A stretch of DNA of 63,926 nucleotides, filler included, from Dugesia japonica (lineage: Eukaryota), in NCBI GenBank assembly GCA_001938525.1. It is 5 parts of 5 records of this genome, joined end to end, with 100 filler letters (N's around TTAATTAATTAA, not from the genome) between each part and the next. Parts side by side here need not be neighbours in the genome. Positions count along the whole stretch, not along the records: positions 32,685 to 53,337 come from MQRL01640044.1; 4 more parts are not named here. One strand, 5' to 3'. A program made the position numbers and the translations under genes. Under the pieces are notes generated by a model. That model saw only the letters and a program-made list of their open reading frames with translations. It was not told the DNA's origin and did not search any database. Below are positions 4,729 to 63,316 of the stretch, piece by piece (the first letter of the stretch is position 1; every line of letters begins with the position of its first letter).

Positions 4729-6195
<1,467 letters not shown>

Positions 6196-32584: not shown

Positions 32585-32684
32585 NNNNNNNNNNNNNNNN
32601 NNNNNNNNNNNNNNNNNNNNNNNNNNNNTTAATTAATTAANNNNNNNNNNNNNNNNNNNNNNNNNNNNNNNNNNNNNNNNNNNN
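32585..32684. other. Artificial contig linker N44-TTAATTAATTAA-N44
   Basis: Same structure as 9534-9633. Confidence 0.9.
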
Positions 32685-33363
32685 TATATTTGTCTGGTTT
32701 TCTCTTTATGCTTAGTATTCGCCTCTATTCGTCTTGCTTTTGTTGTCAACTCTTCTAAGTTTTTATACTCTGCTGCTATCAGAGCATCTCGAATATGTTT
32801 ATGTGTCCCATTTAGAAACTGAAATTCTATAATATGACCCGTATTTTCTCCTTTTCCAAAAGCTTTTTCTGCTAACCTTGTTAGCTCATATATATATTCA
32901 CCCACTGTTTCATTTGCTGATTGTACTCTATCTCTAAATTTTTTTATACAAATTCGTTCTAATTCACTTGGGACTATTATCTTTTTCCTCAATTTTGGTA
33001 TTAACCCATCCCATTTATCCGATTTGTTGTCTAAGTTTTTATAGCATTTTAATACATGTTCTTTTAAGTAAAGTGGTAACCTTTTAACTAGTTCTGCTTC
33101 TGTCCATCCACAAGCCGTGGCACAAACCTGAATATGCTCGAAATACTCATCAAATTCCTCAGGTTTTCTTGCATAGAATTGTATGGGTAATATATTTAAA
33201 TAACCTTGGTGACTAAATCCACCTCCTACTTGACCATTCAATAGTAAATTTCTGAAAGGTGTATTTTCATCGTTTTTATTTCCCGTAGTCATTTTTTTAA
33301 TCTCTCTATTTCTCAAATTATATACTATATCTTCTTCAATGATTATTCCTTCGGTATCTTTTC
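32685..33363 (-). CDS. gag: Ty3/gypsy Gag, capsid region (partial)
   Basis: FYARKPEEFDEYFEHIQVCATACGWTEAELVKRLPLYLK...RVQSANETVGEYIYELTRLAEKAF...QFLNG, typical of retrotransposon capsid/MHR. Confidence 0.85.
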
Positions 33364-33725
33364 NNNNNNNNNNNNNNNNNNNNNNNNNNNNNNNNNNNNN
33401 NNNNNNNNNNNNNNNNNNNNNNNNNNNNNNNNNNNNNNNNNNNNNNNNNNNNNNNNNNNNNNNNNNNNNNNNNNNNNNNNNNNNNNNNNNNNNNNNNNNN
33501 NNNNNNNNNNTTATATTATCAGAACTTTGGTAAGAGATTGCGGCAGGAATTCAATCCAAATCTAATACCAAACTTAAGATAATACAAATTAATCAACCTT
33601 GATAAGAGACCGTAGTAGGATTTTCTCCAATGTCTGATATCAAACTGACCAATACACAGTATATTTTAATAAAGGTCTGAACACCCGCTTGATTTTAAAC
33701 TAATTTTAATAATTTTGGTACTTTT

Positions 33726-36202: not shown

Positions 36203-36601
36203 TTAGTCGGGGGATAGTAGCGCACGACCCCATTTTTTTAAAGCAGTTATCAAGGATTTAATACACCTTGAAAAAATTGGCAAAACAATCGAGATATACA
36301 ATGTAATACCTGTGGAAGACGGAGACATATAGCCTGCGACTGTAGGAGTAGAGGTAATAATAGCAACAACAATCGATTTTGTGCCTATTGTAAGAAGACT
36401 AACCACAACATAGAAACGTGTTTCTTGAAAAATCCAACCGTCTGCTATAAGTGTAACAGAAGAGGACATATGGCAAAAGAATGTCAAAACGGTAATAAAA
36501 CAAATTATAATCGGAATCCGAATACGAATTTGGATAATCTAATGCAAGAAAATGAGCGATTAAAGTAAAAAGTAAATCAAAACAAGGGACAAGTTAATTT
36601 A
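36203..36601 (+). pseudogene. gag: Gag nucleocapsid with three CCHC zinc knuckles (missed by the ORF track)
   Basis: From 36302: CNTCGRRRHIACDC, CAYCKKTNHNIETC, CYKCNRRGHMAKEC. Same frame as ORF 36602. Confidence 0.9.
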
Positions 36602-39309
36602 GTGCATCAAAGTACTTTCGACAATGTGTACTACAAGGTGCAACAGGAAAATGACTGGCTCAAGTGGCAAAACCAAGATTTGCAGGTACAGCAGGAGAGA
36701 CTAGCCAAAAGAAACCTATTAAATGAACCATACAAGAATCAGTGCAATATGGTTAGGACGCACAGGCAAATTTATAACCAGCATGACGAAAAAACGGAAG
36801 TTACCGAAATGGAAGATACTCGAAAAAGAATATTGATTACGTCGCAAGAATTTGACTGGACTAAAGAGATCATCTATAAAACAATAAAACCGTCAGTACC
36901 GACCACCGGAAGAAGGCCACTGATGAACCAGTTCCTCCGATCATATCAACACCCACAAGTACACGCAAAGGTAAGGGCTAACTGGCAGAAAACAATATCG
37001 GATTATATCACCGAGCTGTATAAAGAAACCCAGTTAGAAGACTATGAGTTAGAAATTCAATATGTATGGCATAACAACGTAGAGGTCATTCCAAAAGGAG
37101 TTAAGGTACCATTAAAAGGGTTGAATGTACGACATTTGAAAGAAGCTATGAACGAGATAAAATGGAGCAAAGTAAATGGTATCAAGGGATGACTGTAAAC
37201 TCGTTTCTCGAATTACCACCGTTTGACGCGCAGCAACGATGGAATGGAAAGTGGAGTGAGCACAGACTGCTATTAGGTAATATAGGAATCAATATTCTTC
37301 CAGATGATCGGAATCTAATATTTAACGGAGCACGACCCCATGAAACTACCATAATTAAATTTATAAATTGGGATTCGGTATTCCGACCACAAACAGTAAT
37401 TCAGGAAATAGAAACTGACGAACTATATCATAATCTTGAGGAAACATTCCTAAAGGAAATCGTTCCAATCCAGTCTCAAACATAAATACGGAAACGATTG
37501 GGGACGGTAAGGCTAATGGACTATCCAGAATTGGAATAAGCCAAAGCGTCACGATTATCCTTGGCACGAATTGATGAGATACTGATAGCGGCGCAGAAAT
37601 TACATGACACGATAAAGAAAGAAGTATACCTAAAGTTGACAAATCGATTGGTCGAACTATTGGAAGTGATACAACTAATTACCGAGTGCGAAAGCGATTG
37701 GACAGAATGGTTACCGGTGCATTACGAATGGGTAATATCCAACATGGGATTATCGGATTACCAAGTATGGCTATATAACCCGGAAGGAAATATGAAACTG
37801 ACGCTCATATGATTAATGGTAGAGGATCTGGAAGCTGCGCTTAAGCAAGCTGGTTATCCAAGCATAACCGATAAATATGTATGCACACCAAGTGCTATGG
37901 TAGATTTTACCGCCAGAAAGAAACATCTATAAGATTTTGGAGTAAAACCAGAAGAGGGCACTGAAATCGTAGTATTGGACAAACACCGTGGTATCGACTA
38001 TGACATCAGGATAACAAAAACCGGAAGATCAGCTTTAAAAATCATAGGAGAAATGGAATATCTATATAAACAAGGAGTAGAGCCAATTAAAATCAAGATA
38101 CTTTCCACGGTACTCGAAAAAAAAGATAAACTGACAAAGGAGGAGAGGAAACAGTTGTTAATGACGCGTAACGACTTCCTCACGCAGCGATTGGAGAGAA
38201 AAGAGAGGAAATGCAACATGATAAGAATGCGACAGATGCCATCGAGAGAGGTAGTAGCAATGCGTAAGGTGGAAGAAATGGTTAACCGAGTACAGATGAA
38301 GAAGGAGAACCTACCCCGAGAAACCTGTCGGATGATAATGAATAGAATCTATGACATATATGACGGACTAGAAATACCGGAGGAAATCGAGAACCAATGG
38401 CTCGTGATTAGGCAGAAAAAATATTGGCAAATACCAAAATTCAGGAATCTAAATTATATTTGAATAAAGGTTAAAATGAACAAGAACTGACTAAATACAG
38501 TCGATTAAAACCACAAGGAATAACCATGATAGATTTAATGGATGCCATTACCGATAAGTGGTGAGAACAAGAACTAAACATGGTACCTCTGTTCATAAAT
38601 GGCAAATTGGTCGAGACAGACGACGAGGATAAGCACATATTCCAATGCCACGTAAAGCCTGGAGAAATATGTGAGTTGGATGTAGATGAGGAGCCATAGG
38701 CGGGTCAATCACCGGATCTCGAGGAGTGAATGGAAGAGATAACAGAATTATACGTATCCGAGGTATTGTCTGGTATAAAGAAACAAGTAAAAGAAAATCA
38801 GCGAATACAGAATATTGATAACCTACCAATAACCACCACCAAATCAGTTGTATTTCCGGAAGGGACACCAACAATACGCGATATTCGGATGAAATATACA
38901 AAACCGATAACGGAAAAATCCGCTACGTTTCACGCTATCAACGATCTGTTAAAAGTAACCCGAGAAACTCGACCAGTTGTGAATATCAAAGTATATCGGA
39001 AAATGATGAATAATCTACGGGATTTGGCAATTTATGGACAGCTCAGCTTGTGGGCTCCAGCACAATGGTTGAAAGAGAAAAACCTATACAAAGAGGAAGT
39101 ACAGAATACATCCACTTTATCCGACTATTCTCTCAGAGTCAGCCTACTTAGTAAAGAGGGAAGCATAAAAAAGGTAGATATGAGAACGCTGAAAGGACTA
39201 ACGATCAACCATATCATAAAACCAATCAAGAAATGGCTATGGCCAAAATCACTCAAGTCCTATAAAATGCAAGCAGAAGCAACAAAGATTATATTAGCCG
39301 AGAAAGAGA
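36602..39309 (+). pseudogene. ~900-aa polyprotein region of unknown function between Gag NC and the glycoprotein (ORF pieces 36602, 37162, 37561, 37975, 38730)
   Basis: Near-continuous coding fragments on one strand, broken by stops and frameshifts; no motif recognised. Confidence 0.6.
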
Positions 39310-41615
39310 ACCACTACAATACTCTTATTATCCCTAATGATGGGCAGAAGTGAAGCCATATTAGCATACGACTGCGATGGAATGCAAGTTGGAAAGGAAG
39401 TATTCTCATTAATGGATACAAAAGAATGTACAGATGCAAACCCAGAGAAAATCTTACTCCGTAATAATTCCATTTATCATCTATATTAGGAGTCAGATTA
39501 TTATAAGGCCAAGTACGCGAATGTACAGTAACGGTAAAAACATTTATATTTTATTGTGGGTATTACAGTTAAACTTCGGTCATTGATCCAGGAACAGTAA
39601 GACATCCTGTAAATCTAACCGGACAACAAAGCGATGAAGGATTTTCCACAGGAAAGATCACCATCAAACATGGGACTCAGGTCATCGCCAAGAAAGGGCA
39701 TGTAATCGACCAACTCATAGAAGCAGCAGGAAGTATATCTTCACATAAAGGTCACTGCGAATACGGTACATACACTATACGAGGAAAGGTCTGGGAGTAT
39801 GCGGTAGCAATTGAAACCTATAACGTATAACTCAAGGAATACGAGGCATTCTTTGATGCCCAAGATTTGACTTTGTAAGGAAGGTTATATTGCAAAGCAG
39901 CAGATGGATCAGGTAATAAAGGTACATCAACATTAACATATAAAGTAGAGCACCAGGACTGTAAATTAGCACACTTAAAAGAAGCAATGTTCAATTAATA
40001 TCAAGGGCAACGAGCTATAACGCCTATCGATCAAGCACCAAAGGAGGGTAATCTAAACGATAGAATAGATAATCTCAAAGAAACGATAAGATCAGGGCAA
40101 AGATCATACGATCAACAATGGCACACAACTCCTAAAGTGTTAATGTCCTCAGAGCAAGATGAGACCATCCGGCTAATTAAAGGAAATGCAATGTCAAAGT
40201 GTGGGCAAATAGAGTATAAAACGAACTACAAAGGAATATTCGTTTCGGAACATCGTATAAAAACAGCTCAAGCCGCAGTGATGTCACAGGATATCAAATT
40301 GCATCTGTATGCCAATAATAAAATGGATAATTTATTTCATCGCATGTAAGATACCATCGGACATATGTACCACGATCTTATTCAAAATGACTGCACAATA
40401 AATAAAGAAATATTGAAGACAAAATTAGCAATGGCGGTTACAAACCCAGATAGTGTCACTCCTCTACTTCATTCGGTAGAGTAGTAGGAGAAGTAATTTA
40501 CCTGTACAAATGTAAGGCTATAGATGCAAAAGTTCTCTTCTAATCCAAAAAACTGATATAATGAAATAGAAATTATCCACAACAACGATAAACGGTACGT
40601 ACAACCATTTACGCGAATCATATCACCAATGGGTTATAGGCCAAATATCATAAATTGCTCTAACGTATTTTGGCCACAATACATAATGACAGATGGTTCA
40701 TGGATACGATTTCCGTAACGAATGGCAGTGAGAGTCGAACCACAAAAATTCTCCATGTTACGGTTGAATAGGGGTATGCAATTCACTCCAATTGACGTAA
40801 ATAAAGGAGGAATTTACAGCCGGGAAGATCTGGAGAAAGCCAGGGAATACATGCTGTTCCCAGTCCGAAGGATGCAAATTCTATCAAATATAGTACAATT
40901 AACCAGTGGAACTAACAAAGATGAACGAGTGAATTGCGATGCATTATTGTCAGCAGATCACTTTCAAAAAGTCACAGAAAACGTAATGCAAAAAATGTGG
41001 GGACGATTCATCATATTTGGACAAGCAATGGCAGGATTGTTGGGAGTTATGCTGATAATTTCGGTAACACGAGTAGTGATTACTCAATTGTTCGCATTTT
41101 TTTATATATACAAAAGAGAGAAAAAGGTGAATTGGAAAATGGTAATGGGATTATTTCCATTTTTAGCCAAGACTATGGTGCTTAATAGTCACTCCAAGGA
41201 TATTGACAGGGTAAAGAGATTCATTCCAAAACTCGGACAAATACGAGGATCAGNCAAGGAAGTTATAATGCAACTCAGACTATTATGCGAAGAAATGAGC
41301 AACGCTAAGAAGAAAATATCTTATTTCAACCAATTCAAAGAAAGATTTAAAAATAAAGGCGAAAGTAGTAGCAACAGTGACGACGTTAGAGGGGAAAGCA
41401 GTGGAACCCCTCATGTACCCAATTATAAAACTGCCATGGAATATGTCACAGAATTCAAAAGGCAGCAATACGAAAAGATCAGCAAAATGCAACGACTAAA
41501 AAACGCGTTAAAATTCGGAGGAGGAGAAAGCACACCAGCACCAGCGCAAATGTATTATTACGCCTATCCGCAACATGGTTGGCAACCCATGAACCAACCA
41601 CTCCAACAAGTATGA
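39310..41615 (+). pseudogene. env: Chuvirus (Jingchuvirales)-type envelope fusion glycoprotein, decayed
   Basis: Signal-like TILLLSLMMGRSEA|ILAYDC...FSLMDTKEC; REC.V.VKTFIFYCGYYS*TSV; GEVIYLYKC; QPFTRII..NCS..PQY...GSW; GGIYSREDLEKAREYMLFP; TM region WGRFIIFGQAMAGLLGVMLII. This motif series matches chuviral glycoproteins as I know them. Confidence 0.85.
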
Positions 41616-41809
41616 GCACCAGGTCCCATGTACAACAATCCGTATGTAAGCCCACTACAAGCCCAGAATATGGCGCTATTAACGGATAACAATGTATCAA
41701 CTATGGACCGAAGAATAATCGAACAAAACTTACGTACTCCAAATAACCAGATTAAGGAGGAGGATAAGTTAGAGACTCAAACCGTATGTATGATGATTTC
41801 TCAAAAAGC

Positions 41810-42100
41810 AAAATTATTACAGAAAAGGATACAAATCGACGGAAGATTGGTAATAGCTATTATTGATACAGGAACAAGTACGACGTTAGTCCATAAGAGG
41901 ATATTAGAAGATTATTGCCTACTTAGAATAACAATCAAAAAGGAGTTATCATCACGGCCTTTGGAAAAGAAAAATCTCACCCATTGGAGAAGCAATATGT
42001 GCGTTAGAAAGCGATGGAATCCGTTTCTGGCATAAACTGCAAATAATGAACGAATTAACGTTCGACTGTTTATTGGGGTTGGACCTCTTGCCACGCCTCT
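41810..42100 (+). pseudogene. Retropepsin aspartic protease domain 1
   Basis: IQIDGRLVIAIIDTGTSTTLV (DTG at 41865-41873), then after a frameshift ...FDCLLGLDLL. Confidence 0.85.
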
Positions 42101-42439
42101 GTCCCGAGGGAATATTGGATTTGAGAAAACTAACGATACGAGAAAACTACGATTAAGAGTATGCACTGGTAGGATATCAGAAAACTAGTATAATAACCCA
42201 ACAGAAACGACCACAACAATTGAATCAGCCAACACCCAACCGACTGAGACAGCGGCCAACTGGCCGAAATAAACAAAACAATTCGAATCAAGACCGTCAG
42301 AAAATCACCAATACAACTACCTTGATAAGGGGCGATTGGATAAGGTTTCAAGAACGAGAACCAAGATGGAAAAACAAAATACCAACAAACTGCAATCATA
42401 ACCCTTCAGATGTAGTATGCGCAAGTCTCAATGGCGGAC

Positions 42440-42723
42440 CAGTATTAACCATTATAGTTAAAATCAACGGCCGACCCATAACAGCCCTATTGGATACCCG
42501 AGCAACCATATCGTTGTTGTCAATAGATGAAATTGCGATAACCGAATACAAAAACACACTACCCACAAACACTATAGCAGATGTGGCAAATGGTAGTAGC
42601 CTCAAAATTTTTGGAGAATTGGCCTGTGAAGTCAAATATCAGGTTAAAAAAATTAAACACAATATGATCATAGTAGAAATGATGGGCCAGTGTATTCTAG
42701 GGACAGATATTCTTCGAGTCTAG
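42440..42723 (+). pseudogene. Retropepsin aspartic protease domain 2
   Basis: VKINGRPITALLDTRATISLL (DTR, one base from DTG), ADVANGSSLKIFG and CILGTDIL. Confidence 0.85.
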
Positions 42724-45700
42724 ATGAAAAATGGCATATTAAACTTCTCAACATTACGGTTACAATCATTGAAAGGTTATACCCGTGTGAAGGATCACGA
42801 AGAAGAAATTTTGGTACCCAGTAGATGCCAAGTATATTGTGTGGTCAGTACCAAAAGTGCCTATGAAGGAGATTGTTATTTCGAACCGTATGACGGATTT
42901 ACACACCAGTACGAGATACCCACGGCAGGAGGAATAAACATGGTCAACAAAAGTGGGGAAGTACCAGTTAACTTAGTTAATTTTACAGAAAAAGATATCA
43001 CAATTAAGCCAAACTCCAGGATGGGTACACTAACCCCCATCGAACCTGAACCCGAAGTGATAGAAGAAATAGCCCCTGAACCGGAAATTGATAGAACATT
43101 TAAAGTGGAAACGGAAACTTTATCAGAAGACCAGAAACAAGCAATACTACAATTGTTGGAAGAATTTCGAGATATTTTCGAATGGACCGATGAAGAGTTG
43201 GGTATGTGCACAGCAAAAATGCACGCAATTCCGTTAACAGACGAAACTCCATGCAAACAGAAGCCATATGCCATGACAGTGGAGAAAAAAGAGTTTGCAA
43301 ATAAAGAAACAGCTAAATTAGTGAAAATCGGTGTGATAGAACCATGGCAGTCGCCAGTAGTGTTAGTAGATAAAAAGGATGGGACGCAACGATTCTGCAT
43401 TTATTACAGACGGTTGAACGCTTAAACTAAGAAAGACACGTACCCATTGCCAGATATCAAGGAATTACTGCAATTACTTTGTAACGCTAAAATATTCACT
43501 ACGTTAGATTTGCGAAGCGGTTATTGGCAAATTTAGATCAAACCAGAAGATAGGGAAAAAACAGCCTTTTCCACAGGCAAGGACTTATACCAATTTATCC
43601 GTAGGCCATTTGGACTTACTTATGCACCAGCCTCTTTCCAACGAATGATGAATTACGTAACTCACGGCATATCTCAATGTATGGCCTATATCGATGATCT
43701 ACTTATCTATTCGCCAACCTTTGAAGGGCACCTTAATGACTTGTGTATTATGTTTGTACGACTACGTAAATGGAATTTAAAAGTGAAACCCACCAAATGC
43801 GAATAGGCCAAGAATAAAGTAACCTATTTAGGCGAACTAGTATCGGAAATTCATTAAGGATTTCGCTAAAATTGCGAAGTCAATGCAGGATTTGGTTAAA
43901 CAAGATACTGCCTTTAAATGGGGACCGGAACAACAAAAGTCGTTTGAAACATTACGAGATAAATTACTAACTGCACCAATTCTGGTACACCCAGATTTTA
44001 AGAAGCCATTTATATTAGCCACCGACGCTAGTGGATACGCGATGGGTGCAGTGTTAAGTTAATTAGACGAACAAGAAAGATAAAGAGTAATCGCATATTT
44101 TAGCAAGAAATTCCAAGGAGCAGAGTTAAGCTACAGTACTACAGAACAAGAAATAATGGCTATTGTAAAAGCCACCAAAGATTTTTGATCACTTATACAT
44201 GGTCATGAGGTATTAATCTATACAGATCATTTACCAATCACTTTCATGGCTCAGAAACCATTACGATGGAACCGGATGGCAAAATGGCAGTTAGCAATGC
44301 AGGATTATTGTCCATTATTAAAATTTAAAGCGGGAAAAGCAAACTCAAATGCCGACTGCCTGTCCAGAATTGGTGGACCAGAAACTACAGGAAATACACC
44401 AGAAGATTTCGAAACGTTTACAGGAATTATTAGAGAAAAAAGTAGGCATGGTTTACTTTATACTAGCTGAAGATAGGAATTTTGATGGATTTAAACAAGC
44501 GCAAGCTGACGATGAGGAAATCCAGGTAATCACAAAATATATGGAAAATTACAATTTAGAGAAGTTAGAATGTGAACCCAAGATGAAGGAACACCTAAAA
44601 AAGAATGAGGGTCGTTATGCAATTACCAAGGGTTGGTTGACAGCTCAGAATGGAGATAATACCGTGTTGGTTATCCCTAAGGCAAGACGGGATAAGCTAC
44701 TTGAACAGTATCATAATGGTGTATTAGGAGGACATTTGTCCCATAAGAAAACTGAGTCAAAATTAAGACAGAAATATTACTGGCCACATATGACAGAATC
44801 AGTGCTGCCAGAAGAGGAACAGGAAAAGGAGTAAAAGCGTTATTAAAGCCCATCGCTGTACCAACCGCTCCAATGGAAATCTTTGCTATGGATGTAGTTG
44901 GACTATTACCTCCAACCCTAAGCGGAAATATTTACATAGTTACCATAATGGACTACTTATTTAAATTCCCAGAAGCATTTCTAATGAAAAATCAAAAGGC
45001 AAAAACTATAGCCGATATTTTGGTACGAACATTTTTCAGCAGATACGGTGCACCAAAGAAAATACTGACGGATCAGGGAAAGAGCTTTATGAGTAACATC
45101 TTAGCAGAAATATCGAACTTCCTTAAAATCCACCAACTACGAACCTCACCTTATCATCCTCAAACAGATGGGTTAACAGAACGATTTAATAAAACTTTGA
45201 TCAATATGTTGTCCAGTCACGCTCAAAAGGAACAAAATAACTGGGATAAACCTATTCAACTATGCCTATTTGCATATCGAATGAGTGTGCACCCCGCAAC
45301 TAAATACACCTCATTTGGTCTTATGTATGGGAGAGAATGTAACATGCCTATTGACTTGGAATTCCAGCCACCGATAACCTAATATCAAGATGAAATGGAC
45401 TTTGCCGCAAATTTCAAAGAGACCATACAGAAAATATGGAAACAAGCCAAAGAGAATGTAGGATTTTACCAAGAAAGTTATAAAGATTTACACGATAAAA
45501 CAGCAGTGCAACATTCTTTTAAAAAAGGCGACATGGTATTAATCAATTTACCAGACATTTGTGTCGGTAGGACATCGAAATTAAAAAGACCATGGCAAGG
45601 ACCGTATGAGGTAATCGAAGTAACAGAAACTACCCTCAAGGTTCGAAAGAAGGGGAATCTACTAGAGAATCCAAAGATCTACCACGCCAACTTGTGTAAA

Positions 45701-45775
45701 AAGGCAGCAGTGACAGAAGAAGCTGCGCCAGTCACAAGCACTGAGCCCACCGCAACAAGCTATGATGGTACTTAG
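42724..45775 (+). pseudogene. pol: Pol: possible dUTPase-like linker, reverse transcriptase, RNase H, integrase (zinc finger, DDE core, GPY/F)
   Basis: SPVVLVDKKDG.QRFC, LDLRSGYWQ, PFGL..APASFQR, YIDD (43687), TDASGYAMGAVL, YTDH, H..GGH...YYWP, MDVVG, TDQGKSF, PYHPQTDGLTERFN and WQGPYEV. Several stops, frameshifts and small deletions. Confidence 0.95.
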
Positions 45776-47080
45776 TAAACCACTAATAAATCCTTCACCA
45801 TGGAGGAGTAAAGAAACAGTGGTAAAGAAAAACAGTCTCAGGGAGGACGCTGAGTTTGAAGAAAACGGGGAAGGATTAATAACGGGAAAAAAGAAAAAAG
45901 AAAAACAAGAAACGGGTCTACCTGCTGCGAATATAGAAAGACCAGAAACATAGTTACGAAGGATAACTAAGGTATTATAGATGGATGTTTCTGAACACGA
46001 CATCAACCAAGAAAAAGCTAAGGAGGGTAGTACAATCATAAATACCTCACCGAGTATTTCGGGGATAAAACAAACATGTAAAAGAGGTAGAATTAAACAT
46101 ACACTGAGCAATATTCAATCTCAGCAAACGCAGCAAAGTGCATCATTGATTAATAATAAAGAAATTGTTAAGAAACAAAGAGATAAAACATTGTCTTTCG
46201 ATTCAGGTAACCAAATGCGCCGACCACTCATGATAGAGGCTATGAGTGCCACCACAATCTATCCAATCACATATCAAGGAATGCAAACACCTAGAGCAGA
46301 GGAGAATTGTGCCCATATCGGAAAAATAACATGCCCACTGACAGTAATGCAGTTAGAAAGAAACTGTTCACAATGTATAAAGAAAACGCAAATTATACTA
46401 AAAACCACGTGGAAGGCTATTTACGATCAGAAAGCATGGTTATCAAGATGAGAAAATTGGTTCAAAAAAGAGTCTGAAGGATCACAAATTGAGCTACCAA
46501 TTGAAGCACCTATCCGGCAATCCACCCTAAAAAAAAGTTGGGTTTATCTTGTGCCGAAGTATATAGTGAAGAATTGTTAACATCTGTTCAACTATTTCAC
46601 CATATACTAGTGCAATGGAATTGGATTAGATTATACGAACCATTGGAGATCCAATTGCCAGGGAGCATGATTACACCAGCTATCCAAAATAAATTAACTT
46701 GGAAGAAATCGAAACCAATCAATATCGCAAATTTTCATGAAGAGTTTAAAAAGCAAAGGAATTTGACGAAAGAAGCATTTCAGAATCAAGGGGACGAAAG
46801 GAAGGAAAAAGAAAGACAACTAACCAGAATAACGTCGGGAGGAAGAATAAATTAGAAGCGACATTAATACCAAAAGAGGTGGATCAAAGAAAACCAAGAA
46901 AACAAGAATGGGATTACAATAATAGTAGTTAAATTATCTCTACTATTATGGGCAATAATCAACACAAGTTGGGATTACGGCATATTAGTGTGGTTAACTA
47001 CGAAACTTATCAGAAATACGGAGAAGGACAAACCCATATAAATTATAATATACGGAATCACATGGATAATTCTACTCTGA
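45762..47080 (+). pseudogene. Post-integrase coding region of unknown function
   Basis: Consecutive ORF pieces 45762, 45981, 46538 and 46948; charged and low-complexity, with one C/H-containing segment (CAHIGKITC...CSQC). Confidence 0.45.
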
Positions 47081-48648
47081 TTGATATCACCAGCACTGGC
47101 AACACAACAAGCACAAAAGTTCAGCCAAAATAAAATTCTTAGTATCAAAAGTATATTGATTATCTTAATAACGGCTATACAGGAAATACAAAGTCAGGAA
47201 TGCTGGGTGAATGAACCAGTATTGACAGAACATAGGATAGCCACGGGAAAAGACGTATCCATTAGTCGCTCGGGATTATTAAAAAAGTGGAAAACACAAC
47301 CAATGCATTATACCGGGAAAATGGCGCTAGTACCATTAATAAAAAGTCAAAAGAGCACAATGGTAAAAATAGATGAAACAAAAAGGAGAATAAAAGTACA
47401 CCTCTTAAGCCAATCGCCAATAGAAGGCCGAGTGATATAATTTGGTCTGGATAAATGGGTAATAAATTCCGTGGTGGATATAAAATGTGAAAATCCAGAC
47501 AATCCATTATTGTATGAAATNNNNNNNNNNNNNNNNNNNNNNNNNNNNNNNNNNNNNNNNNNNNNNNNNNAAATTCCGTGGTGGATATAAAATGTGAAAA
47601 TCCAGACAATCCATTATTGTATGAAATGAAAGCAGAATTTGAAATAGTGGGGAGTTGCAACATCCTGATATACTATATAGAAGACAACCTTTGAACTAAG
47701 AAGTGGGAAACGCGGAAAACCCAGAACCAAGAAATAAAAATATGCGCAAGAAGCGAGTTTAACTATCATACCATTATTTGACAGTTCCAGCGCTATCGAG
47801 TAAAAAAATTTGGAGAGGAGATAAAAAAGGAAGGGCAAACAAGTATAACCTTTAATCAAGGTAAAAGAGTGCATTCAATCATTGCATCATGAATTTAAAG
47901 ATTGGAAACCATATTGGCAAATGGGCCCATACTCATTCCAAGTAAAAAAGATCAAGAACAAATATTACCTAAAATTCGATAGAAAGATTGAGCAATTAAT
48001 ATTGCACCAATTCAACGATTTTTCTAACTGGTGGTGGAAAATGGATACCGGGTATTGGCCTGTGAAAGCAAACGCAGAAATACATTTTGGAGAATTAAAT
48101 AAAGATATACTGGGAATCGAATTTACGACTGTAATAAACCAAGATCGAGTAATTAAAAAGAACATAACAAAAGAACCAGAGTTAACTACCAAGAAAATCA
48201 CCACAACTTATCCATCAACGGTATCGATAACCACAGAAAAGGAAAAACTCAACACAGAGTGTAACCAAGGGAAAGGAGAAAAAAGATCTCAATTCCTTAA
48301 CAATTGGATGATGAATATACGCAAATTTGAATCTAGAGGAAACTATTGGGAAGTAATGGAAGGACTCTCGACTACATATCGTCCAATTACCAAGTTACAC
48401 AAGTAAGAAGTCAGGAAATGGGGTATGTTGTGGGAAAAGGAAGCGCCGTCATTACAATACTCTTAATCAGCATCGCATGCATATGCAAATCGCAACCTAA
48501 GAAAAAGAAATACCATCGTCATAAAAAAGAACGCCCTCTACCTTTAGCACCACCAAGTTATGAAGGGCTGATACAGAGAATGCCATTTGAAACATTACCA
48601 CCTTACATGCCTTGGGTGTACCTGGTACAAGGGGTAATGACGTGCTAA
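47081..48648 (+). pseudogene. Second type-I membrane (env-like) protein at the canonical env position
   Basis: Signal-like ILSIKSILIILITAIQEIQS|QEC, a Cys/Trp-containing ectodomain, a Thr-rich stalk (TTKKITTTYPSTVSITT), TM VVGKGSAVITILLISIACIC, basic KSQPKKKKYHRHKK, and a tail with PPSY (48550-48561) and LPPY. Confidence 0.65.
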
Positions 48649-48748
48649 GCAAATGTTGAATTTGTGTAAATATTGTAAATTAGAACATAATAAATATATA
48701 TAGATGTAATTAACATTATCATATTAACAAAAACCAATTATTCAGAAA

Positions 48749-49351
48749 ATGAATCAGATCGGAAATGAAAGTGATTATACAAGTATAAACGAAAATGAAT
48801 CAATGGACTCACAAAGTGGACTAAAGAATGCTAGTATGACAAGTTATATACGTAGTAATTCGGTCAGGAGCACTACTTCAATAAATAATAATAACGCCAT
48901 CTGTTCCCAAAGAACAATCAATGAAATATGGAGAGACCATAACGAAGCAATAAAAGAATTATGGAATAGTGCAAACACCCAAATGCAATGGACTCAACAA
49001 CGATTAGAAGAACTAGAATGCAATCAAATTCAACTAGTACAAACCCTAATAACAACGAAACCCTTAGATTGGTGCGAATTGGACTTTAAGAATAAAATCT
49101 TACAACTACAGAATGAAAATCTCTACTCAGAAACCCTTATGTGTCGGAAACAACTAATAGAAAATCGACGAATGCTGGAAATCGTCACAGAAAAGCAAAA
49201 CTACCCAATGGAGTTGGTAGCTAAGCAACACGACCTAATCCTCGATCAGTCAAAAGAACTTAAATACCTAAACAAATTAGTAAATTCACAAAGTAGGGAA
49301 ATCGAGACACTCAAGACCCTGAGTGTCCGCAACCAAGTCAGTTTTGTCTGA
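48749..49351 (+). CDS. Accessory coiled-coil protein (200 aa, intact ORF)
   Basis: S/N-rich N-terminus then heptad-rich helices; TTCAG|AAAATG context. Confidence 0.6.
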   Translation: MNQIGNESDYTSINENESMDSQSGLKNASMTSYIRSNSVRSTTSINNNNAICSQRTINEIWRDHNEAIKELWNSANTQMQWTQQRLEELECNQIQLVQTLITTKPLDWCELDFKNKILQLQNENLYSETLMCRKQLIENRRMLEIVTEKQNYPMELVAKQHDLILDQSKELKYLNKLVNSQSREIETLKTLSVRNQVSFV

Positions 49352-49598
49352 AATCTAAGAGAGAGGGGGAGTTTTTAAAAAAAATATATATATAAAATAA
49401 ATAATAAAATAAATAAAAATAAAGAAGTGATTAATAAAAAAATAAATAAGTAAATACTTATATTTATGTATATATATGCCTGTATTCGACACAAGTAAAC
49501 CTGTACTCGAAGTAATATAACATGATGTATAAGAGGAAATCAAAAAACAATATAATAGTATTATATAATCAGAAGTAATAATATATCTCTTGTAGATA

Positions 49599-50643
49599 AT
49601 GGAATTCAATTTCGAAATATCAATACATGAGGTTAGACTATTTTTGGAAGACCCAGATATCAAATCGTTGGACATGAGCAAAGGACGAGAGGAAATCAAG
49701 CAAACCCCAGTAACACAAAACATAATGCACTACCGTAACGTATTTGCAGCACCGGAAAATTTCATAAGTAAAAGGGTGTGTTACAGCACAATGACAGTTT
49801 TTGATGAGAAGTACACAAATGGGGCATGAATGAGCAACCCAATAGAGCACATAGAAAATGGTTTCCTACCTGTCCATTCCTGCTAAATGTAGATGTAAAC
49901 AACAAATCCCAACTAATTAAAGGAAGAAAGCCCGAAATCGAAGAATCAACAATGGAGACAAAAAAGTTATATTGTAAAATAATAAAAAATTTAGCGGAAG
50001 TAGCAGTCCCAGAGGATCTCGAATTGAATATCGAAGAAAGAGAAAAACCTTCCAGAAAATACCAAATCTGGAAGAAAAAACAATGGAAGGATTATATCTC
50101 GTCCAGCAAACCAGAGATAAAGTTATCAAATGCGCCACTTGCAAACGAGAAACTCTACTACTTCAAGGAATAGAGAAATTACCAAAGAAAATATTCCATC
50201 AACCGAATTGTTTAAGATTAACACCAATCAACAACGAAGAAACACAACCAACAGCATGTAGAATCGAATGAAATATGTCGAGTAAAAGAATAGAAATGGC
50301 AATGGAATTACAGACTAACCAGCTGGCTAATACCTTAAAGTTATATAGGATGAATATCAAACAGTTAATAAAACAAACGGTCGCAGAAAAAGGGTCTGGA
50401 CTAGTCACACCATATGAGTTATACCAAAGATCACTCAAATCGGTAAAACCACAGGTGAAATATGAGCAAGAATGGGTTTTGCTAGATCATGATTGCGTTA
50501 TCTGCCTTGGAGAGACCATTGAGGTCATATTTTTGTCATGTGGGCATTTCAAAACATGCTATAAGTGTGCTTTACACTTAAATGAATGCCCTATGTGCCG
50601 AAAGGTAATTAAACACAGGGTATGGGAAATAAAATTTCAATAA
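49599..50643 (+). pseudogene. iap: Inhibitor of apoptosis (BIR - BIR-like - RING) carried by the retroelement
   Basis: BIR1 end HKWGMNEQPNRAHRKWFPTCPFL has W-x9-H-x6-C spacing. BIR2-like GLYLVQQTRDKVIKCATCK...FHQPNC. C-terminal IAP-type RING CVICLGETIEVIFLSCGHFKTCYKCALHLNECPMCRKVI. Two frameshifts and one in-frame stop. Confidence 0.87.
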
Positions 50644-50741
50644 ATCAATAAACTGAATATGTAAATAATATATAATTATATATACTTATAACTGTCAAAA
50701 TGGTATTAAAATAAATTAATCACTCTCCCTGATTTTAGAAA

Positions 50742-51116
50742 ATGAACACTGAAAACTTGATAAACCATTTGCGTAACGAGATTCAAATATTGCAAATTCA
50801 AACCCAAACTCTTACCACTGTACCTGAAGTCCTAAAATGGAAATTGGAATCCAAAATCGATGCAATATCAAATTTGCAATTGCAAAAATATAATAGTGAG
50901 TTGGAAAGTCAAGTCGAAAGAGCGCACCTAGAGCTAGAAAATAAAAAACGATCCTGCAAGTCCCACAAAAAATAAATTAAAAGTAACATTGATGCAAACC
51001 GAGCAAAAGTAAACGCGATAAAACAGGCTCGCGAATGGAAAAGCAAATACGAAAACGTGGAACCCAAACGTAAAGAATCCGAAAGCAGTCAACATACCGA
51101 AGGAGAAGTAGACTGA
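50742..51116 (+). pseudogene. Accessory coiled-coil ORF (one internal stop at 50973-75, open again to 51116)
   Basis: TTTTAG|AAAATG context; heptad repeats. Confidence 0.5.
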
Positions 51117-51375
51117 TAATCATTAAAGTCGATGTAAATAAACTGTTATTAATACCTAGACTATAAATTACTTATTAATAATAATCGGATAAAGGAACTT
51201 TGAAAATATTGATGTATACAGTAATTAAATGTATAGTGTAGAAAGGTTTTATGTATGTGCTGAACAAATAACCTGTAATGACCTTAAACTCATATTGATC
51301 TGTCAGTTTTATTGGGAATAAAGGAGTTTCTGCAACGAGGATGGACTATGGCAAATTCCGGGACGGAATTTAAAC

Positions 51376-51391
51376 AAGACGGAGAGCGATT
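51376..51391 (+). promoter_or_regulatory. Polypurine-tract-like sequence before the 3' LTR
   Basis: CGGGACGGAATTTAAAC-AAGACGGAGAGCGATT, immediately followed by TGTTGGG. Confidence 0.65.
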
Positions 51392-53337
51392 TGTTGGGAT
51401 GAAACACCCGCTAAACGAGAATAAAGCCGAAAAGGCAGATCAACGAAAAGAATAGCAGAACCACTATAGTTCGTAATAATGAAATAAAACATATAATCAT
51501 CATTAGAGGGGAACAAATTAAAATCCAAGATAAATATGAAGAACCGGGTAACATAGAAGCAACTTATGTTTGGAAATTAAGAAAAATTATTAAATTAATA
51601 ATAAATAGCAAAGAAAAGTGGTTTTAAAATAATTAATTAACAAAAGAAAATTAATTAATTTGAAAATAAAAAAGAAGCGCAATTAGTCAAAAATCTGTTT
51701 TATCCAGATAACTTCGTTCAAGGAAGTCAGAAAGAAACCGGACAAGAAAAAATGAGAAGAACATCAAGATACAATTGAAATAACGAAGAAGAAAAACATA
51801 CCACCTTGCAGAAGGGTACTGCAAGGTTTCCAAGATCCAGCCAATAGAAAACCAATAAATAAAAATATAACAAAGACACAAATGTCAGGTGTCATGATAA
51901 AAATAGCTGCCAATTGCAGCACCAAAATTCTTAGAAAAATTTAGAAAATTGGCTCGGTAACCAATAATATCCAATAAAGGCTGATCCAAAAATAATTAGC
52001 AAATCTAAATCAAGTCGGGGTGTCTCAGAAATCATATAAAAAGACCCCTGAGTTTAACAGAAAAAAAACACAAAAAAACCAAAACTAAAACCACTAATTT
52101 TGTAGATTCATTGCTGTGAAATTATATCAATTACCGGTTAACCCAAGGTATTAACGGAATAATATTAGTTATCGCGTATCAGTCGTGATATATCAGAAAA
52201 TTAACGTAGTTTAAATTTTGCGGTGTGAATCGTGAATAAATTTATTATTTAGAAAACAGGGAATTACAAGAACTCTCAATTCAAGAATCGCATCCAGTAA
52301 TTATTCGAATATTATATATAAACCCGTTTCAGGAATCTTATTAGTTTATCCCAAAGGAGATTAATTCGAAGTAATTAATATTTTGATTGTATTAAATGTG
52401 TGTGCATATACAATTTATTATAATCTACTCTAATAAATTTGATTGTTTTAATCTGCTATTATAGAAAAAAAAATTCATTATAGTTTATCTAATAAATTTA
52501 GCTTTGATAAATTAGAATTTTGCTTTTGCTATAATTTCTTTTATGAAATTTAGTCATATTAAAATTCTTTACAATGCAGGAATATTAGTACATAAAATTA
52601 AGAAATAGGAACGATAGAGGATGAAAACCTCATTACAATGGTGATTCTTGAATTTAATATCGTTTCCCTGTATAAACTAAATTTAATTAATATTTTTCGG
52701 ATGAATATCAGAGAATGTTTTAAATAAACGGGAAATGGATTACAGTGAGTTACTACATTCTTATCTCTTACGCTACGGTTAAATAAACGAATATGTTTTT
52801 TTTATTTTATCAGATAATCAAACTACATGACTGATCCTTTAACGCAAACATTAAAATTTATCCGGTTTGAACGGCGTAAATCTCGGAGAAGACAGTTGTT
52901 GACTCACATCTTATCGTGTGGTGTAGTCGAGCACCCCGACGAAACAGATCTCCAGTATTTCGCCGAGATGTTTCCGTCCAAGAATCGAGTTGATATAGAC
53001 GAGGAATAACCCATTGCTCCACTCTAGGATGAAACACCAACGTGCCTCAGGTGGAGCGTCTGTGGCACGATGGACCTTCCTTAATCGGTGTTACCACAAA
53101 TCGATTGCCTTCCACTTCGCAATTATCCTCCTTTGTTCAAAACAATCTTTGGAGTGCACGAAATGAGGCTGCTAATAGCAACAATGAAAAAACCGAGGAA
53201 GAAATTACAGAAGTTTCCGTGTAATGTTATTAGGCAGAATAAACGTTGTTAACCAACTCTTCATTTTTTTGTATCAATTAACCCACTTATCTTCTTTTAC
53301 TAAATTATTTATAAGTTAAGATTCAGACTTTGTTCAT
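51392..53337 (+). repeat. Putative long 3' LTR (start TGTTGGG; end not seen before the linker)
   Basis: TG start after the PPT. TGTTGGG is the inverted complement of the CCCAACA LTR end at 33750. CCAAT-rich stretch at 51910-51975 and TATA-like CATATAAAAAG at ~52033. Confidence 0.55.
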
Positions 53338-53437: not shown

Positions 53438-53983
53438 AATTTAATTGTCACATTGACCCCCGGCAACAAATATTTTGGTTAGTCAAAGAAATCCAAATTA
53501 AGTGCACCACAAAGCGTTAGCTTTGCAAATGTTTTAATCGAACTCTTTCTCTTGTCATCTTCTTAATGATAACCAATGGCTTCAAGAAAAGTGTTTTTTG
53601 TATCCGATCTAAAATTCAACGCGGCTTCAATTAACGACCTTTGCATATATAGTCCTTTGTATCTTCAATCTTTACATTAGTTAGTGTTATTGATGTTTCT
53701 TTGAATAGAGTGTGAAGGAATAATTGGAAAGAATCATGTTGATAGTGTCAGTTGATGCAAAATCCATTCCATCATGTTCCACTGTCTTCATTTTAATAAG
53801 GAGCAATATATCATTCAAATCCAAGTAACCATTATCTGAAGCAATAATATTGAATTCAATTTGTTGTCTAGCATACCCAGTTAAAGAATTTTCAGGGTAG
53901 ATTTCTAAAAATGTTGAGCTTTCAACAACAACCTGTGGAATATTGTAGTCAAAAAGCGATAATTCAGTTTTTCCGATCTACAT
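53438..53983 (-). pseudogene. Maverick/Polinton major capsid protein (double jelly-roll, hexon-like), N-terminal part
   Basis: KTELSLFDYNIPQVVVESSTFLEIYPENSL...IEFNI...YLDL, NYFLHTLF, RSLIEAALNF and GALNLDFFD*PKYLLPGVNVTIK. Confidence 0.85.
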
Positions 53984-53985
53984 GC

Positions 53986-54348
53986 TTATTTTGCAAAGAT
54001 ATTTTCGTCTAATCGTCGTCTTTGGTTTATAGTTGATGCTATTTTATATTTTTGTTTACGTATTCTACTACCATGCTGTCCATCAACAACTTCATTTAGT
54101 GCATAAAGTGCATTTTCCTTCACATCTGGCAACATATTCATTGCTTGGTTTTTGATTGAATCTTTAAATGACTGTTTCTTGCTTATAACATCATCAACAG
54201 TTTTTAGTGCTGCTTGCCTTACCGACTTTGCAATTGGAAGTCCAAATTTCTGCAAAATTGAAATCGCAAAACGATCAATTTTCACCACCCTACTGTTGAC
54301 TACGATAAAATATGGCAAGTCCCCACCCATTTGTGGACGACTATACAT
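53986..54348 (-). CDS. Maverick/adintovirus small conserved protein between penton and major capsid
   Basis: QMGG...RFAISILQKFGLPIAKSVRQAALKTVDDVIS..SFKDSIK, amphipathic with a basic tail; position between penton and major capsid. Confidence 0.65.
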   Translation of the reverse strand: MYSRPQMGGDLPYFIVVNSRVVKIDRFAISILQKFGLPIAKSVRQAALKTVDDVISKKQSFKDSIKNQAMNMLPDVKENALYALNEVVDGQHGSRIRKQKYKIASTINQRRRLDENIFAK

Positions 54349-54404
54349 TATGATAATAGCACGATCAACCATTTCAATAATAAATCAAATTGTAATCAAA
54401 TTGT

Positions 54405-55756
54405 TTAAACTTGTCGAAAATTTAGAGTTAAACTTGTTTTTTATCTATATTGAAAATCAATCAATCTTCTCGCATCATCACGTATGTTTACTTCAATTTT
54501 GTTGATGGAAGATGGTGAAACAGGTAAAAACATTAAATTTTCAAGTCTTACATGTACAACATCATCAAATGAATGCCAATTTCTATTAACTCATATACTC
54601 CTCAAAAGTAGCACGCGTACATCACCAAACAGAATAAGATCGACTATTGATGAGTAAATATATAGTTGTCTGATACCACCGTGTAATAATGGTTTATGCA
54701 AACCCTTTACTTGTTCTGTAGACTTGTAGAATTTTGCAGAAGGAAGACCGTGTATTAGCGAAAGACTCTCGTCGAATGATACATATTCAAAATTATCAAG
54801 TAAATTAAACATGACCACTCAAAATTTTAAATCTATAACAAATTCTTTAAATATTTTGTGGTATAATTTTATAAATGACTTAACCAGATTATTCAGATTT
54901 GTAACCATTAAATCATTTTCAAATTCAAAATAATTTATTTCTGTTTTNATTTCAGTAAATTTTAATTTAACATTAGTTTTGGCAATATTATCCAACATTT
55001 GAGTATCTGATTCGATAAATGAGTTCATTGGTATATTTTTCGTCTTTTGCGAATTAAATCCTAGTAACCGAGCATCAAGCAATGATTTAAATTCCAATTC
55101 CATATTGCAATCAGATTTGATAATTATTTTCTTTTGACCATTAATACTGATTTCGCAATTCTTTTTATTTTTCTATCCAAAAACAACAGGTTTTCCATTT
55201 TTAATCTCAACATTTACTTTTTTTTGAATTTCTTTTATTCTAGCCTTTTCTTCCTCAATAGAATTACACTTTAATTTTAAAGATATTGATGGAATATTTT
55301 CCAGAATCAAATGCTCATCAGATTCAATAACTGAAACTAATGGCTTCTTTTTTTATTATTGATTAAATGGAATCCAAATTATTTAGCATCTGAGAACGTC
55401 TTAAACTCCATTTCTACTCAACAATCTGTTTTTAATATTACTTTCTTTTCATTGAAAAATATATACCAGTTATATTTATTGATAGGGACTGTATTATTAA
55501 GTTGAAGACTACCATTTACATTACTTAATTGAAATTTATCTTCAATTTCCAACACTTCTCTTATTTTATATTCAATTTTTTAACCTTTTCGTATAGTCAT
55601 TGGACAATAATTGAAAACAAATTCTGTCATGGCAACTTCCCAAGGGTCATCTTTTAAAATGATGGCATTCTCATAGTCAACGAAATACTTGCTTGAATTA
55701 TTATCAGTTCAAGTTTTTGGACAACTATTGCTTGGCAAAACCATATAGAAACTCAT
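54405..55756 (-). pseudogene. Maverick/Polinton minor capsid protein (penton)
   Basis: N-terminus MSFYMVLPSNS...NNSSKYFV....I.L.DDPWEVAMTE; C-terminus LYIYSSIV....GDVRVLLLR...IEVNIRDD...IDF...TSLTLNFR. Confidence 0.85.
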
Positions 55757-55759
55757 TAT

Positions 55760-56170
55760 TAGATTTGAGATGCTTGAATCCACGTAGGCTTTGAAAAGCC
55801 ATGTTATTCAACTAGATATTGTTTATAATAACATTTACCTTTGGTTTTGAGAATTGATTTTATTCCATATATACTTGGTTTTTCCAGCAAAACTTGTAAT
55901 TCCTGCTGATAAAATTTGCTAATAATAATTTACCATATTCATCAAATAAAACATGCATGACTGATGACTGCCTAGTGTTGATTTTCGAGATTTAAAAGAC
56001 TTCATCACTCCCGTTATTATCAAAGTTTTTAATGAGTGGCTTAGTACTAATTCGTGAAATCCGTACATGTTATCCAATTTTATATTTTGGTTTTGGCTTT
56101 TTATTGATGAAATAATGTGTATCATCATGATCTGTAACATAAACTGCGATTTTCCCTCCTTCACCTTTGT
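55760..56170 (-). pseudogene. Maverick/Polinton integrase, C-terminal part with chromodomain remnant
   Basis: KPKYKIG*HVRISR....KNFDNNGSDEVFKISKI...LFDEYG and ...KQYLVE*HGFS, directly upstream of the penton. Confidence 0.7.
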
Positions 56171-57464
56171 TCATGAACCTGTTCATGTTATCAAATAATA
56201 TATAATTATCATTTATGATTTTAATTTTTAAAAATTAATATTATTATTGATATTGAACTTATAATTACTAATTTCCAATGAACATCCATATAATTAAACT
56301 GATTTACTCTTACTAATGTACTGTTTTATAATAACGTTTGGGTTTTAGCTAGGTAAGTGCACAAATCTAGGGTAATTGTCATAATAAAACCCCGCGAAGA
56401 ATTTAATCTGGCATCCCCAAAAAATCCAGATCTTCGGAATGGAGCCGTTGACTCAAAATTCGAGTACAGCTTCGCATTCCTTTGGTTCGGGTTCCTACTA
56501 CGTGATACTCGCTCGATTCTTTAGATCTACTTATTCCTTATCAGATATCATTTATTAATTTATTATAAATTCTTTATTATATTTTTATTCAATTAAATTT
56601 TACTAAGTGGTGTTTTTTAAAGTTTGATGGTATTAGTTTATTCAAAAGTTCCATTTTAACATCCCATACTTTAAGTAAGTTCTAGAACTGAAGTTATTGG
56701 GGAAAACATAAAACAAAATAATTGAACTAGTGAAAAATATATTGAATATGGCAAATTTCATTTGTTAATATACACGCTTAGTAAATACTACAATTAATAA
56801 AACTAACATGACATAAATCCCGATCCGTAGCAAGCACAATAACTAGAGTTGGGCCTCTTCAGCGGCCATTATCGACTTTAGTGGTCCTCTATAGCTTTCC
56901 ATTTTTGAGTCGGAAAATCGTTGCACCTCCAAAATGAAAATCGTAATTACCTTGATTGAGAGTTTCTAATTGTCTTCAGTAAGGTTGATGGACAAGTGAT
57001 GATGATGATTTTTTTATGATTTTTTGCATCGGTATTTATACCGGTTTTTGCTACACCCTCGTTCTTTTCATTGGCTAATTTTCATTCTTTTACGTCCCTT
57101 TGGTTGGTTGTTTTAATTTCATCACATGATTTCTTTTGATTGGCCAGAATTTTGGAATTCCAAAATTACTTGAGTTCCAGTGGTCAACCTTTAGACCCTT
57201 ATAACTTCTTTCTGGGTCTTGTCACAACTTTCTATCTTGCATTTTTGAATTTCCTGATTTTTTCTGATCCGTGATTGTCTTATTTGATAATTTTGAATTG
57301 ACGAAAGGTCTCCACTTCCCTCACTTTTGTTGAAAAATTAATTTTCTTCTTTAAAATAAATCATTTTAATTTTATATGATTTATATTATTTAAATAAATA
57401 AATAATTTTATTTTATTTTCTTCATAAAATTAATTCGATGCTCATTTTTCTTTCTGATTTAAAC

Positions 57465-58040
57465 TAATTTTCTCGGTGAGATCGAATGTGGTCAATTTTT
57501 GACTAGTTTAGATCAAATTGATCTAATTTTTCCTAGGGATTGGGAATTTTTTAGATGATTGGGTTCAATTTTTTCCCCGGTTTTGGTCAGTTTGTGTACT
57601 TTTTGGGCGATTCGATCAATTTTTGGGTGGTTTAGGTGAAATTGGTCCAATATTTCCTCGGGATGGGTAATTTTTGGGTGATTAAGGTGGAATTGGTTGA
57701 ATGTTTTCTTGGTGAGGTCGAATGAGGTCAATTATTTGGCTGGTTCAGATAAATTTAGTTCAATATTTCCTCGGGATTGGTAATTTTTGGGAAATTAAGG
57801 TGAAATTGGTCAGATTTTTCCTCGGGATTGGTAATTTTTTGGGTGATTTAGGTGAAATTGGTTGATATGTGTTTCTCGGTGAGCTAGAATATGGTCAATA
57901 TTTGAATGGTTTAGAGTAAATTTTAGGTGATTTGGTCAAATAATTCCTCGGGATTGCTCGGATTCGGTAAAGTTTGGGTGACTTGGTCTAATATTTCCTC
58001 AAGATTGGTCAGTTGGGTTAATCTTTGGACAATCTTTGAC
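57465..58040. repeat. Left arm of a long inverted repeat, made of internal tandem units (GGTGAAATTGGTC...TTTCCTCGGGATTGGTAATTTTTG)
   Basis: Near-identical reverse complement of 62610-63135; it produces identical 72-aa pseudo-ORFs on opposite strands. Degenerate units continue to ~58520. Confidence 0.9.
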
Positions 58041-62609: not shown

Positions 62610-63316
62610 TCAATAATTTGTCTAAGATTGTCCAAAGATTAACCCAAGTGACCAATCTTAAGGAAATATTAGACCAAGTCACCAAAAATTACTCTAAACC
62701 ATTCAAATATTGACCTATTTTACCTCACCGAGAAACCTTTCAACCAATTTCACCTAAATCACCCAAAAAATTACCAATCCCGAGGAAAAATCTGACCAAT
62801 TTTACCTTAATTTCCCAAAAATTACCAATCCCGAGGAAATATTGAACTAAATTTATCTGAACCAGCCAAATAATTGACCTCATTCGACCTCACCAAGAAA
62901 ACATTCAACCAATTCCACCTTAATCACCCAAAAATTACCCATCCCGAGGAAATATTGGACCAATTTCACCTAAACCACCCAAAAATTGATCGAATCGCCC
63001 AAAAAGTACACAAACTGACCAAAACCGGGGAAAAAATTGAACCCAATCATCTAAAAAATTCCCAATCCCTAGGAAAAATTAGATCAATTTGATCTAAACT
63101 AGTCAAAAATTGACCTCATTCCACCACACCGAATAAATTCCCAACTAAATACACAGGGGAAAAGTAACACCAAATTAAGTAATATTACCTAATGATGCAA
63201 TTTATGATGCAATTTTTAAATTTCCAACTAAATACATTAGGAATAAATTTATTAAGTCACGGCGGGGGGAGGCTACTGAATGTGTGCGTGGTGCGGACTG
63301 CTTCTATCGATCTACT
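62610..63316. repeat. Right arm of the long inverted repeat, ending in a Maverick-like terminus (...GATCTACT at 63316)
   Basis: Reverse complement of 57465-58040. The minus strand starts AGTAGATCGATAGAAGC. Confidence 0.8.

Follow-up and report, generated by a model that had tools for sequence, protein, structure and literature searches.

A broken, many-copy BIR-BIR-RING gene behind pol of a decayed envelope-bearing gypsy element of Dugesia japonica, likely a Burro-type accessory gene

Does a gene resembling an inhibitor of apoptosis (IAP), at positions 49599-50643 of a planarian sequence, belong to a retroelement, and could it hold off the death of the cell that carries it? The question is raised by the window analyzed here, the whole of a 63,926-nucleotide stretch of Dugesia japonica DNA (GCA_001938525.1; five parts of five records joined by filler), for which an initial annotation proposed a retrotransposon-borne BIR-BIR-RING gene that protects the host cell. 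The reading favored here, which is considered likely, is that of a broken many-copy BIR-BIR-RING gene behind pol of a decayed envelope-bearing gypsy element, probably a Burro-type accessory gene, intact copies of which would act as a ubiquitin ligase holding off host-cell death.

The IAP gene and its relatives

Translation of 49480-50760 yields no single frame, and the gene, on the plus strand, is split over four pieces. The first (49599-49829, +) corresponds to the N-terminal region that precedes BIR1 in related sequences and aligns with residues 7-40 of one of them, P0036, at 35% identity (E 2.8e-6). The second (49826-50047, +) holds the C-terminal third of BIR1, with H-x6-C, and a linker (P0036 residues 91-164, E 1.7e-11), and the third (50035-50217, +, the frame running on to 50268) a degenerate BIR2. 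An in-frame stop (50269-50271, +) separates BIR2 from the helical region. The fourth piece, in a frame open from 50272, comprises a conserved helical region, possibly UBA-like, that aligns with the relatives (50275-50493, +) and a C3HC4 RING with a 14-residue tail and the stop codon (50494-50643, +).

Residues 7-40, 91-164 and 160-352 of P0036 are matched in the window, whereas nothing there corresponds to residues 41-90, where BIR1 begins and its CxxC lies; the alignment to the relatives contains no intron-sized gaps. The lesions of the window gene are the loss of approximately 50 codons of BIR1, including the CxxC, followed by two frame breaks and one stop. The gap in BIR1 includes no N, and one contig in each of two DNA runs diverges from the window at 49811-49837, which is compatible with a deletion private to the window copy without demonstrating one. 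The IAP gene of the window is a pseudogene; no protein can be made from it, and it is inert.

The terminal IAP-type RING that had been annotated is borne out: all eight ligands are kept, Pfam zf-C3HC4_3 is matched at 50.1 bits (E 2.4e-13), and the closest solved structures are those of cIAP1, cIAP2 and XIAP (E 3e-10 to 7e-9). Among the best 150 of 2603 matches of an HMMER search with the RING piece, P0036, P0021 (with its near-copy P0151) and P0011 also align to repeat 2. These three distinct relatives, which come from ENA assemblies, have E values of about 1.8e-26 to 2e-29, are approximately 30% identical to the window copy and are open frames in every case (3/3). The Pfam BIR cut-off of 22.9 bits is passed once each by P0021 and P0036 (27.0 and 29.3 bits), that is, by two of the three, and P0011 begins downstream of BIR1. 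A profile of the relatives retrieves the BIRs of cIAP1, NAIP, XIAP and DIAP1. The IAP-type RING and the BIRs of the relatives thus place the gene in the IAP family, as first proposed. With the RING piece as query, word-based protein searches gave no match among 37 and among 2 candidates, and such a search with P0036 returned only P0036 itself (1 of 1357); locus searches gave four loci with a RING match only, and none for the window RING piece. In a RING tree of 57 rows and 70 columns, in which 25 non-family context rows were drawn at random from the other matches and P0151 was excluded as a near-copy, the window and the three relatives cluster weakly (78/81), and no donor can be named.

BIR1 had been recognized by the spacing W-x9-H-x6-C. 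These letters exist in one frame (49820-49873), and the tail of BIR1 resembles Pfam BIR below threshold (20.8 bits against the cut-off of 22.9). Only the last third of the domain is present, however, and the CxxC is absent from the window copy. The W is probably an out-of-frame product of chance, because its codon (49820-49822) overlaps the upstream reading frame and because both relatives with a BIR1 (P0021 and P0036, 2/2) lack W at that position, although in 37 of 38 canonical BIRs a W lies ten residues N-terminal to the zinc His.

The shortened BIR2 of the annotation is upheld as a BIR-like repeat, at approximately 50035-50217. Repeat 2 of the window, with C-x2-C-x18-H-x3-C at 50131, is a shortened BIR-like sequence, and the spacing C-x2-C-x18/19-H-x3-C is common to all four sequences (the window and 3/3 distinct relatives). 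The window repeat scores 8.4 bits against a profile built from 38 canonical BIRs, a value that none of 2000 shuffles attains; for the four sequences on this profile, 0, 0, 0 and 1 of 2000 shuffles score as high. By hhalign, repeat 2 is related to repeat 1 (probability 94, E 1.2e-7), and a weaker relation links it with the canonical BIRs (probability 43 over 39 columns). Repeat 2 has no Pfam BIR match in the window or the relatives, no BIR was found among solved structures for the window repeat, and pLDDT exceeds 60 only in the first half of the modelled repeat. Across these approximately 30%-identical sequences, no ligand of the RING and none of the four in repeat 2 has been lost. Judged by its sequences, the shortened repeat is a trait of the family and not a product of decay. 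A search of the Atlas with repeat 2 yielded zf-CW leads only, all below 0.9, and these were set aside.

Two structure models, of the relatives P0036 and P0021, are of low confidence (mean pLDDT 35 and 49) and lend weak support, limited to BIR1 and the helical bundle; canonical IAPs were included in the alignment for the second. Residues 238-295 of the P0036 model resemble UBA/CUE bundles, including the UBA of XIAP (Z 3.5-4.8, a weak likeness in a low-confidence model), and Pfam UBA has no match in the helical region of the window. The conserved region before the RING is likely to be a UBA-like helix bundle, and the predicted layout of the family has four parts: BIR1, a degenerate BIR2, the putative UBA-like bundle and the RING.

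The carrier retroelement and its copies

The IAP gene lies on the same strand as a retroelement, 3.8 kb 3′ of its integrase. The carrier is a decayed envelope-bearing gypsy element with the order gag-env-PR-dUTPase-RT-RH-IN (the dUTPase a weak match), in which every gene is broken. It includes three CCHC zinc knuckles of gag (36272-36565, +; zf-CCHC_5 E 7e-7, zf-CCHC E 7.5e-6), a broken, envelope-like fusion glycoprotein that lies after gag and before the protease (39298-41612, +; Monjiviricetes_fusion, PF24664, five pieces, best E 4e-21), an aspartic protease (42157-42720, +; RVP E 1.1e-6), a dUTPase-like stretch with the start of RT (42724-43422, +; dUTPase E 0.016, 15.5 bits against a cut-off of 22), broken RT and RNase H (43537-44467, +; RVT_1 E 1.3e-16, RT_RNaseH_2 E 5e-17) and a broken integrase with its zinc finger, core and C-terminal part (44322-45772, +; Integrase_H2C2 E 1e-12, rve E 1.5e-12). 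No element parts were recognized to the left of the gag knuckles, and composition steps near 36250; the element looks 5′-truncated, with about 16-17 kb left. The AT skew of the IAP gene (0.29) is compared with 0.23-0.30 for the element, both being A-rich, and the DNA of the gene is modelled better by the element than by the right-hand neighbor in 200/200 subsamples. Strand, position and composition therefore bear out the proposed link of the IAP gene to the retroelement.

Further features were observed in the window. Tandem protease-like motifs, DTG and DTR, occur at 41616-42032 (+) and 42157-42720 (+), the first stretch matching gag-asp_proteas at E 0.015, and are possibly a duplicated protease. 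Broken pieces after the integrase (47081-48648, +) have no Pfam match; they contain what is presumably a hydrophobic signal-like stretch, a Thr-rich stalk, a transmembrane stretch and PPSY in the tail, and look like a second membrane protein. Elsewhere lie a DEAD-box helicase in a 388-codon open frame that is intronless there (4990-6156, +; Pfam E 1e-49), a 665-codon open frame with no Pfam match (16858-18855, +) and pieces of other LTR elements, namely RNase H (24352-24672, +), a G-rich purine tract (27530-27542, +), integrase (28444-28647, -) and gag (32633-33550, -). A 410-nt inverted repeat (57466-57875 and 62730-63139), 97% complementary and 4.9 kb apart, likely represents the ends of a DNA transposon.

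The IAP gene is multi-copy and not the single-copy host sequence that the initial annotation had named as its counter-case, each of the four listed IAP sites being covered by 11-35 different contigs in both DNA runs. The two runs placed 8774 and 9188 contigs on 43500-50650, mostly less than 95% alike. Among the listed contigs and reads, which are pieces of approximately 250-350 bp, none links IAP to pol in another copy. None of 87 RNA reads (81 and 6, from about a quarter of each of two runs) is at least 95% identical to the window copy, and no joints were seen.

BIR cargo of planarian Burro elements is already in print (PMC6431247), so the novelty implied by the initial annotation does not hold: an IAP gene in a Burro-type element is already known, and the window contains a further, dead member. 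Burro1/GYPSM1 of Schmidtea mediterranea is a giant gypsy element that shares with the window element its BIR and RING cargo, three CCHC knuckles, an env of mononegavirus type lying between gag and the protease and, as a match below cut-off in the window, a dUTPase-like stretch that follows the protease and precedes RT (PMC6431247). The domain order of the window element is the Burro order as described in that paper; the PR-RT-RH-IN order, the mononegavirus-type env between gag and PR and the three knuckles are all found. In contrast to Burro1, the window copy is broken and was not seen to be expressed. The MATH/TRAF, BCL2-like, SUMO-like and ankyrin domains that belong to Burro1 (PMC6431247) were likewise not detected by Pfam-type scans of 48 broken pieces of at least 38 aa outside env-pol, those published having been found in part by the more sensitive HHpred. 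A BCL2-like reading of 37540-37809 received no support. The comparison with the B-IAP of Burro1 is one of description and not of sequence; the window family shows a shortened second BIR and a putative UBA-like bundle, which B-IAP may share. BURRO1 has been called highly abundant and active (PMC8532177). The GAG-ENV-POL errantiviruses of Platyhelminthes share with the window element the gene order and a chuvirus/gB-type fusion protein; 'BIR' and 'apopto' are absent from the available part of that paper, in which IAP cargo is not discussed (PMC13524379).

The BIRs and their probable target

The annotated likeness to DIAP1 and baculovirus IAP3 stands for the layout, because the window family combines two BIR-type repeats with a RING at the end, and fails for the W and acidic residues of peptide-binding BIRs, which the family lacks. 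The family differs from these proteins in that its BIR2 is shortened and scores below the Pfam cut-off, the groove signature is missing, and a helical, UBA-like region stands before the RING. The D of the DDP stretch is present in 35 of 38 canonical BIRs, and neither it nor the W ten residues before the His occurs in the intact BIR1s of the family (0/2). Neither repeat qualifies as a type II (peptide-binding) BIR, as found in DIAP1; E or Q before the zinc His, which belongs to the definition of that type (PMC8917759), occurs in 0/3 BIR1 tails. A further type II feature, W at the third residue after the His, occurs in one of the three, that of the window. Baculovirus IAP-3 ranks first for the P0021 model in a viral library, at 13-25% identity over the listed rows, a ranking biased by the canonical IAPs in the alignment, and nothing points to a baculovirus as ancestor. 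The H-x3-C of repeat 2 may be compared with the type Y BIR of oyster host IAP genes, in which three residues of the last helix are lost (PMC8917759).

Intact copies would be translated from a spliced mRNA, with poly(A) signals at the stop codon and an acceptor 3 nt before the ATG. The target would then be bound by BIR1 together with the shortened BIR2, probably without the standard N-terminal peptide groove because the groove signature is missing; the UBA-like bundle would bind ubiquitin, and the RING would recruit E2-ubiquitin and tag caspases or their activators. The element would benefit because the stem cells that copy it and pass it on would stay alive. The protective role proposed in the initial annotation agrees with that of the B-IAP of Burro1, which is reported, at second hand, to protect stem cells and to counter caspase-mediated apoptosis (PMC13465017). 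The window copy itself cannot play this role, given its deletion, two frame breaks and stop, and none of the 87 RNA reads is at least 95% identical to it.

Because the groove signature is missing, a non-caspase signalling target is possible, and the same gene on the same carrier may encode a signalling or immune-dampening E3 ligase with a TRAF/TAB-type partner, as for type I BIRs, instead of a caspase inhibitor. The missing W, D and E/Q residues favor this alternative, as does the MATH/TRAF domain of Burro1 (PMC6431247). Against the anti-apoptotic reading itself stands the view of reviews that a type II BIR is essential for anti-apoptotic action (PMC3972657). The signalling alternative is nevertheless rather unlikely, since caspase-mediated apoptosis is what the B-IAP of Burro1 reportedly counters (PMC13465017, second-hand), the BIR1 tail of the window retains the W three residues after the His, and XIAP and DIAP1 are known to bind caspases outside the groove as well (PMC3972657). 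Protection from cell death is the likely role of intact copies.

Position of the gene behind pol

The initial annotation placed the IAP gene upstream of the PPT/LTR. This placement is not borne out: no LTR pair was found within the window, the gene has the best purine tract on its upstream side, and only a 9-nt run lies downstream. The longest G-rich purine tract after pol (49357-49371, +) is 227 nt before the IAP start codon, and is not significant alone, as 217 of 1000 simulations give one such; the best purine run downstream of the gene, of 9 nt, is near 51505. Since the best tract is upstream, the gene may sit in the LTR, a location proposed tentatively and with slightly less than even confidence, with a step in depth counted in its favor. 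Summed depth is 100-900 in most bins of 46.6-48.7 kb, 460-3600 over IAP and 7500-33000 over pol. Depth, which is not the same as copy number, rises several-fold to about tenfold near 48.76 kb, 600 bp before the purine tract, and this unevenness suggests that parts of the region may differ in history.

The rise of about tenfold could also be explained if the IAP gene belonged not to the gag-env-pol body but to another mobile unit next to it, either a Polinton or the long terminal unit of some other family. Broken ORFs at 53687-56234 (-) presumably resemble capsid-region genes of Polintons, which would favor such a unit, but searches gave no match in support of a Polinton reading of 53.7-56.2 kb. 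Moreover, these ORFs are on the other strand and beyond a gap, and differ in composition (GC 0.29 and skew 0.09 against 0.36 and 0.29), whereas 47.6-53.3 kb is free of gaps, and an LTR would also give a depth step; the separate unit is thus quite improbable. Very improbable indeed is a host IAP retrocopy picked up by passive capture and at no time of use to the element: the dead window copy and the lack of RNA reads of at least 95% identity would suit it, but the RING and four repeat-2 ligands are kept at approximately 30% identity, the three relatives are open frames (3/3), and the four sequences cluster, if weakly, in the RING tree (78/81).

On the preferred reading, that of an accessory gene of the element, the gene has similar neighbors behind pol. 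The region 48649-53166 (+) holds a series of small ORFs; the spacers are short and AT-rich, and acceptor-like sites stand immediately in front of the ATGs. Directly upstream of IAP is an open accessory ORF of 200 aa (48749-49351, +) with no Pfam match at cut-off, and the next one downstream (50742-51116, +) has one internal stop and a strong acceptor-like site before it; a 60-aa micro-ORF with an EHxDETD motif lies at 52827-53009 (+). The splice-acceptor-like site at 49581-49595 (+) ends 3 nt before the IAP start codon and is in the top 6% of 1192 AG sites. Acceptor-like AGs scoring at least 9.5 and at most 16 nt from an ATG precede 4/6 post-pol ORFs, compared with 26/362 ATGs of the element, the six ORFs having been chosen after the fact and the acceptor score being crude. 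Spacers between these ORFs are 98-247 nt long and AT-rich, and contain AATAAA in 4/4 cases, as is common in such DNA.

Cis-splicing, which is used by complex retroviruses, would be the plain reading of these sites in the post-pol ORFs. Resolution by a spliced leader is possible, because flatworms have operons with spacers of less than 300 bp (PMC12582326). A more elaborate proposal, which is unlikely as a whole, holds that the IAP gene lies in a 4-kb U3 of the LTR and heads an array of small genes, each with its own acceptor and poly(A) signal and approximately 100-250 nt apart, that would be resolved as operons are, perhaps through the spliced leader of flatworms. A solo LTR would then be an anti-death cassette, whose grooveless BIRs would restrain caspases while remaining deaf to antagonists of the Smac/Reaper type. 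In the literature searched, no paper was found that describes B-IAP as lying in an LTR, as having a second, shortened BIR or as being spliced, although primary Burro papers or their supplements may already show these.

The published phenomenon of an anti-apoptotic IAP in a retroelement is extended here to a further, decayed many-copy family of Burro type. This family helps to date the capture of the IAP gene and shows that its loss copy by copy is possible. Its layout without a groove signature raises the question of how caspases are restrained and whether host antagonists have been escaped. If the gene does lie in the LTR, solo LTRs would spread IAP independently of transposition, which bears on the upkeep of the mutualism between host and transposon.
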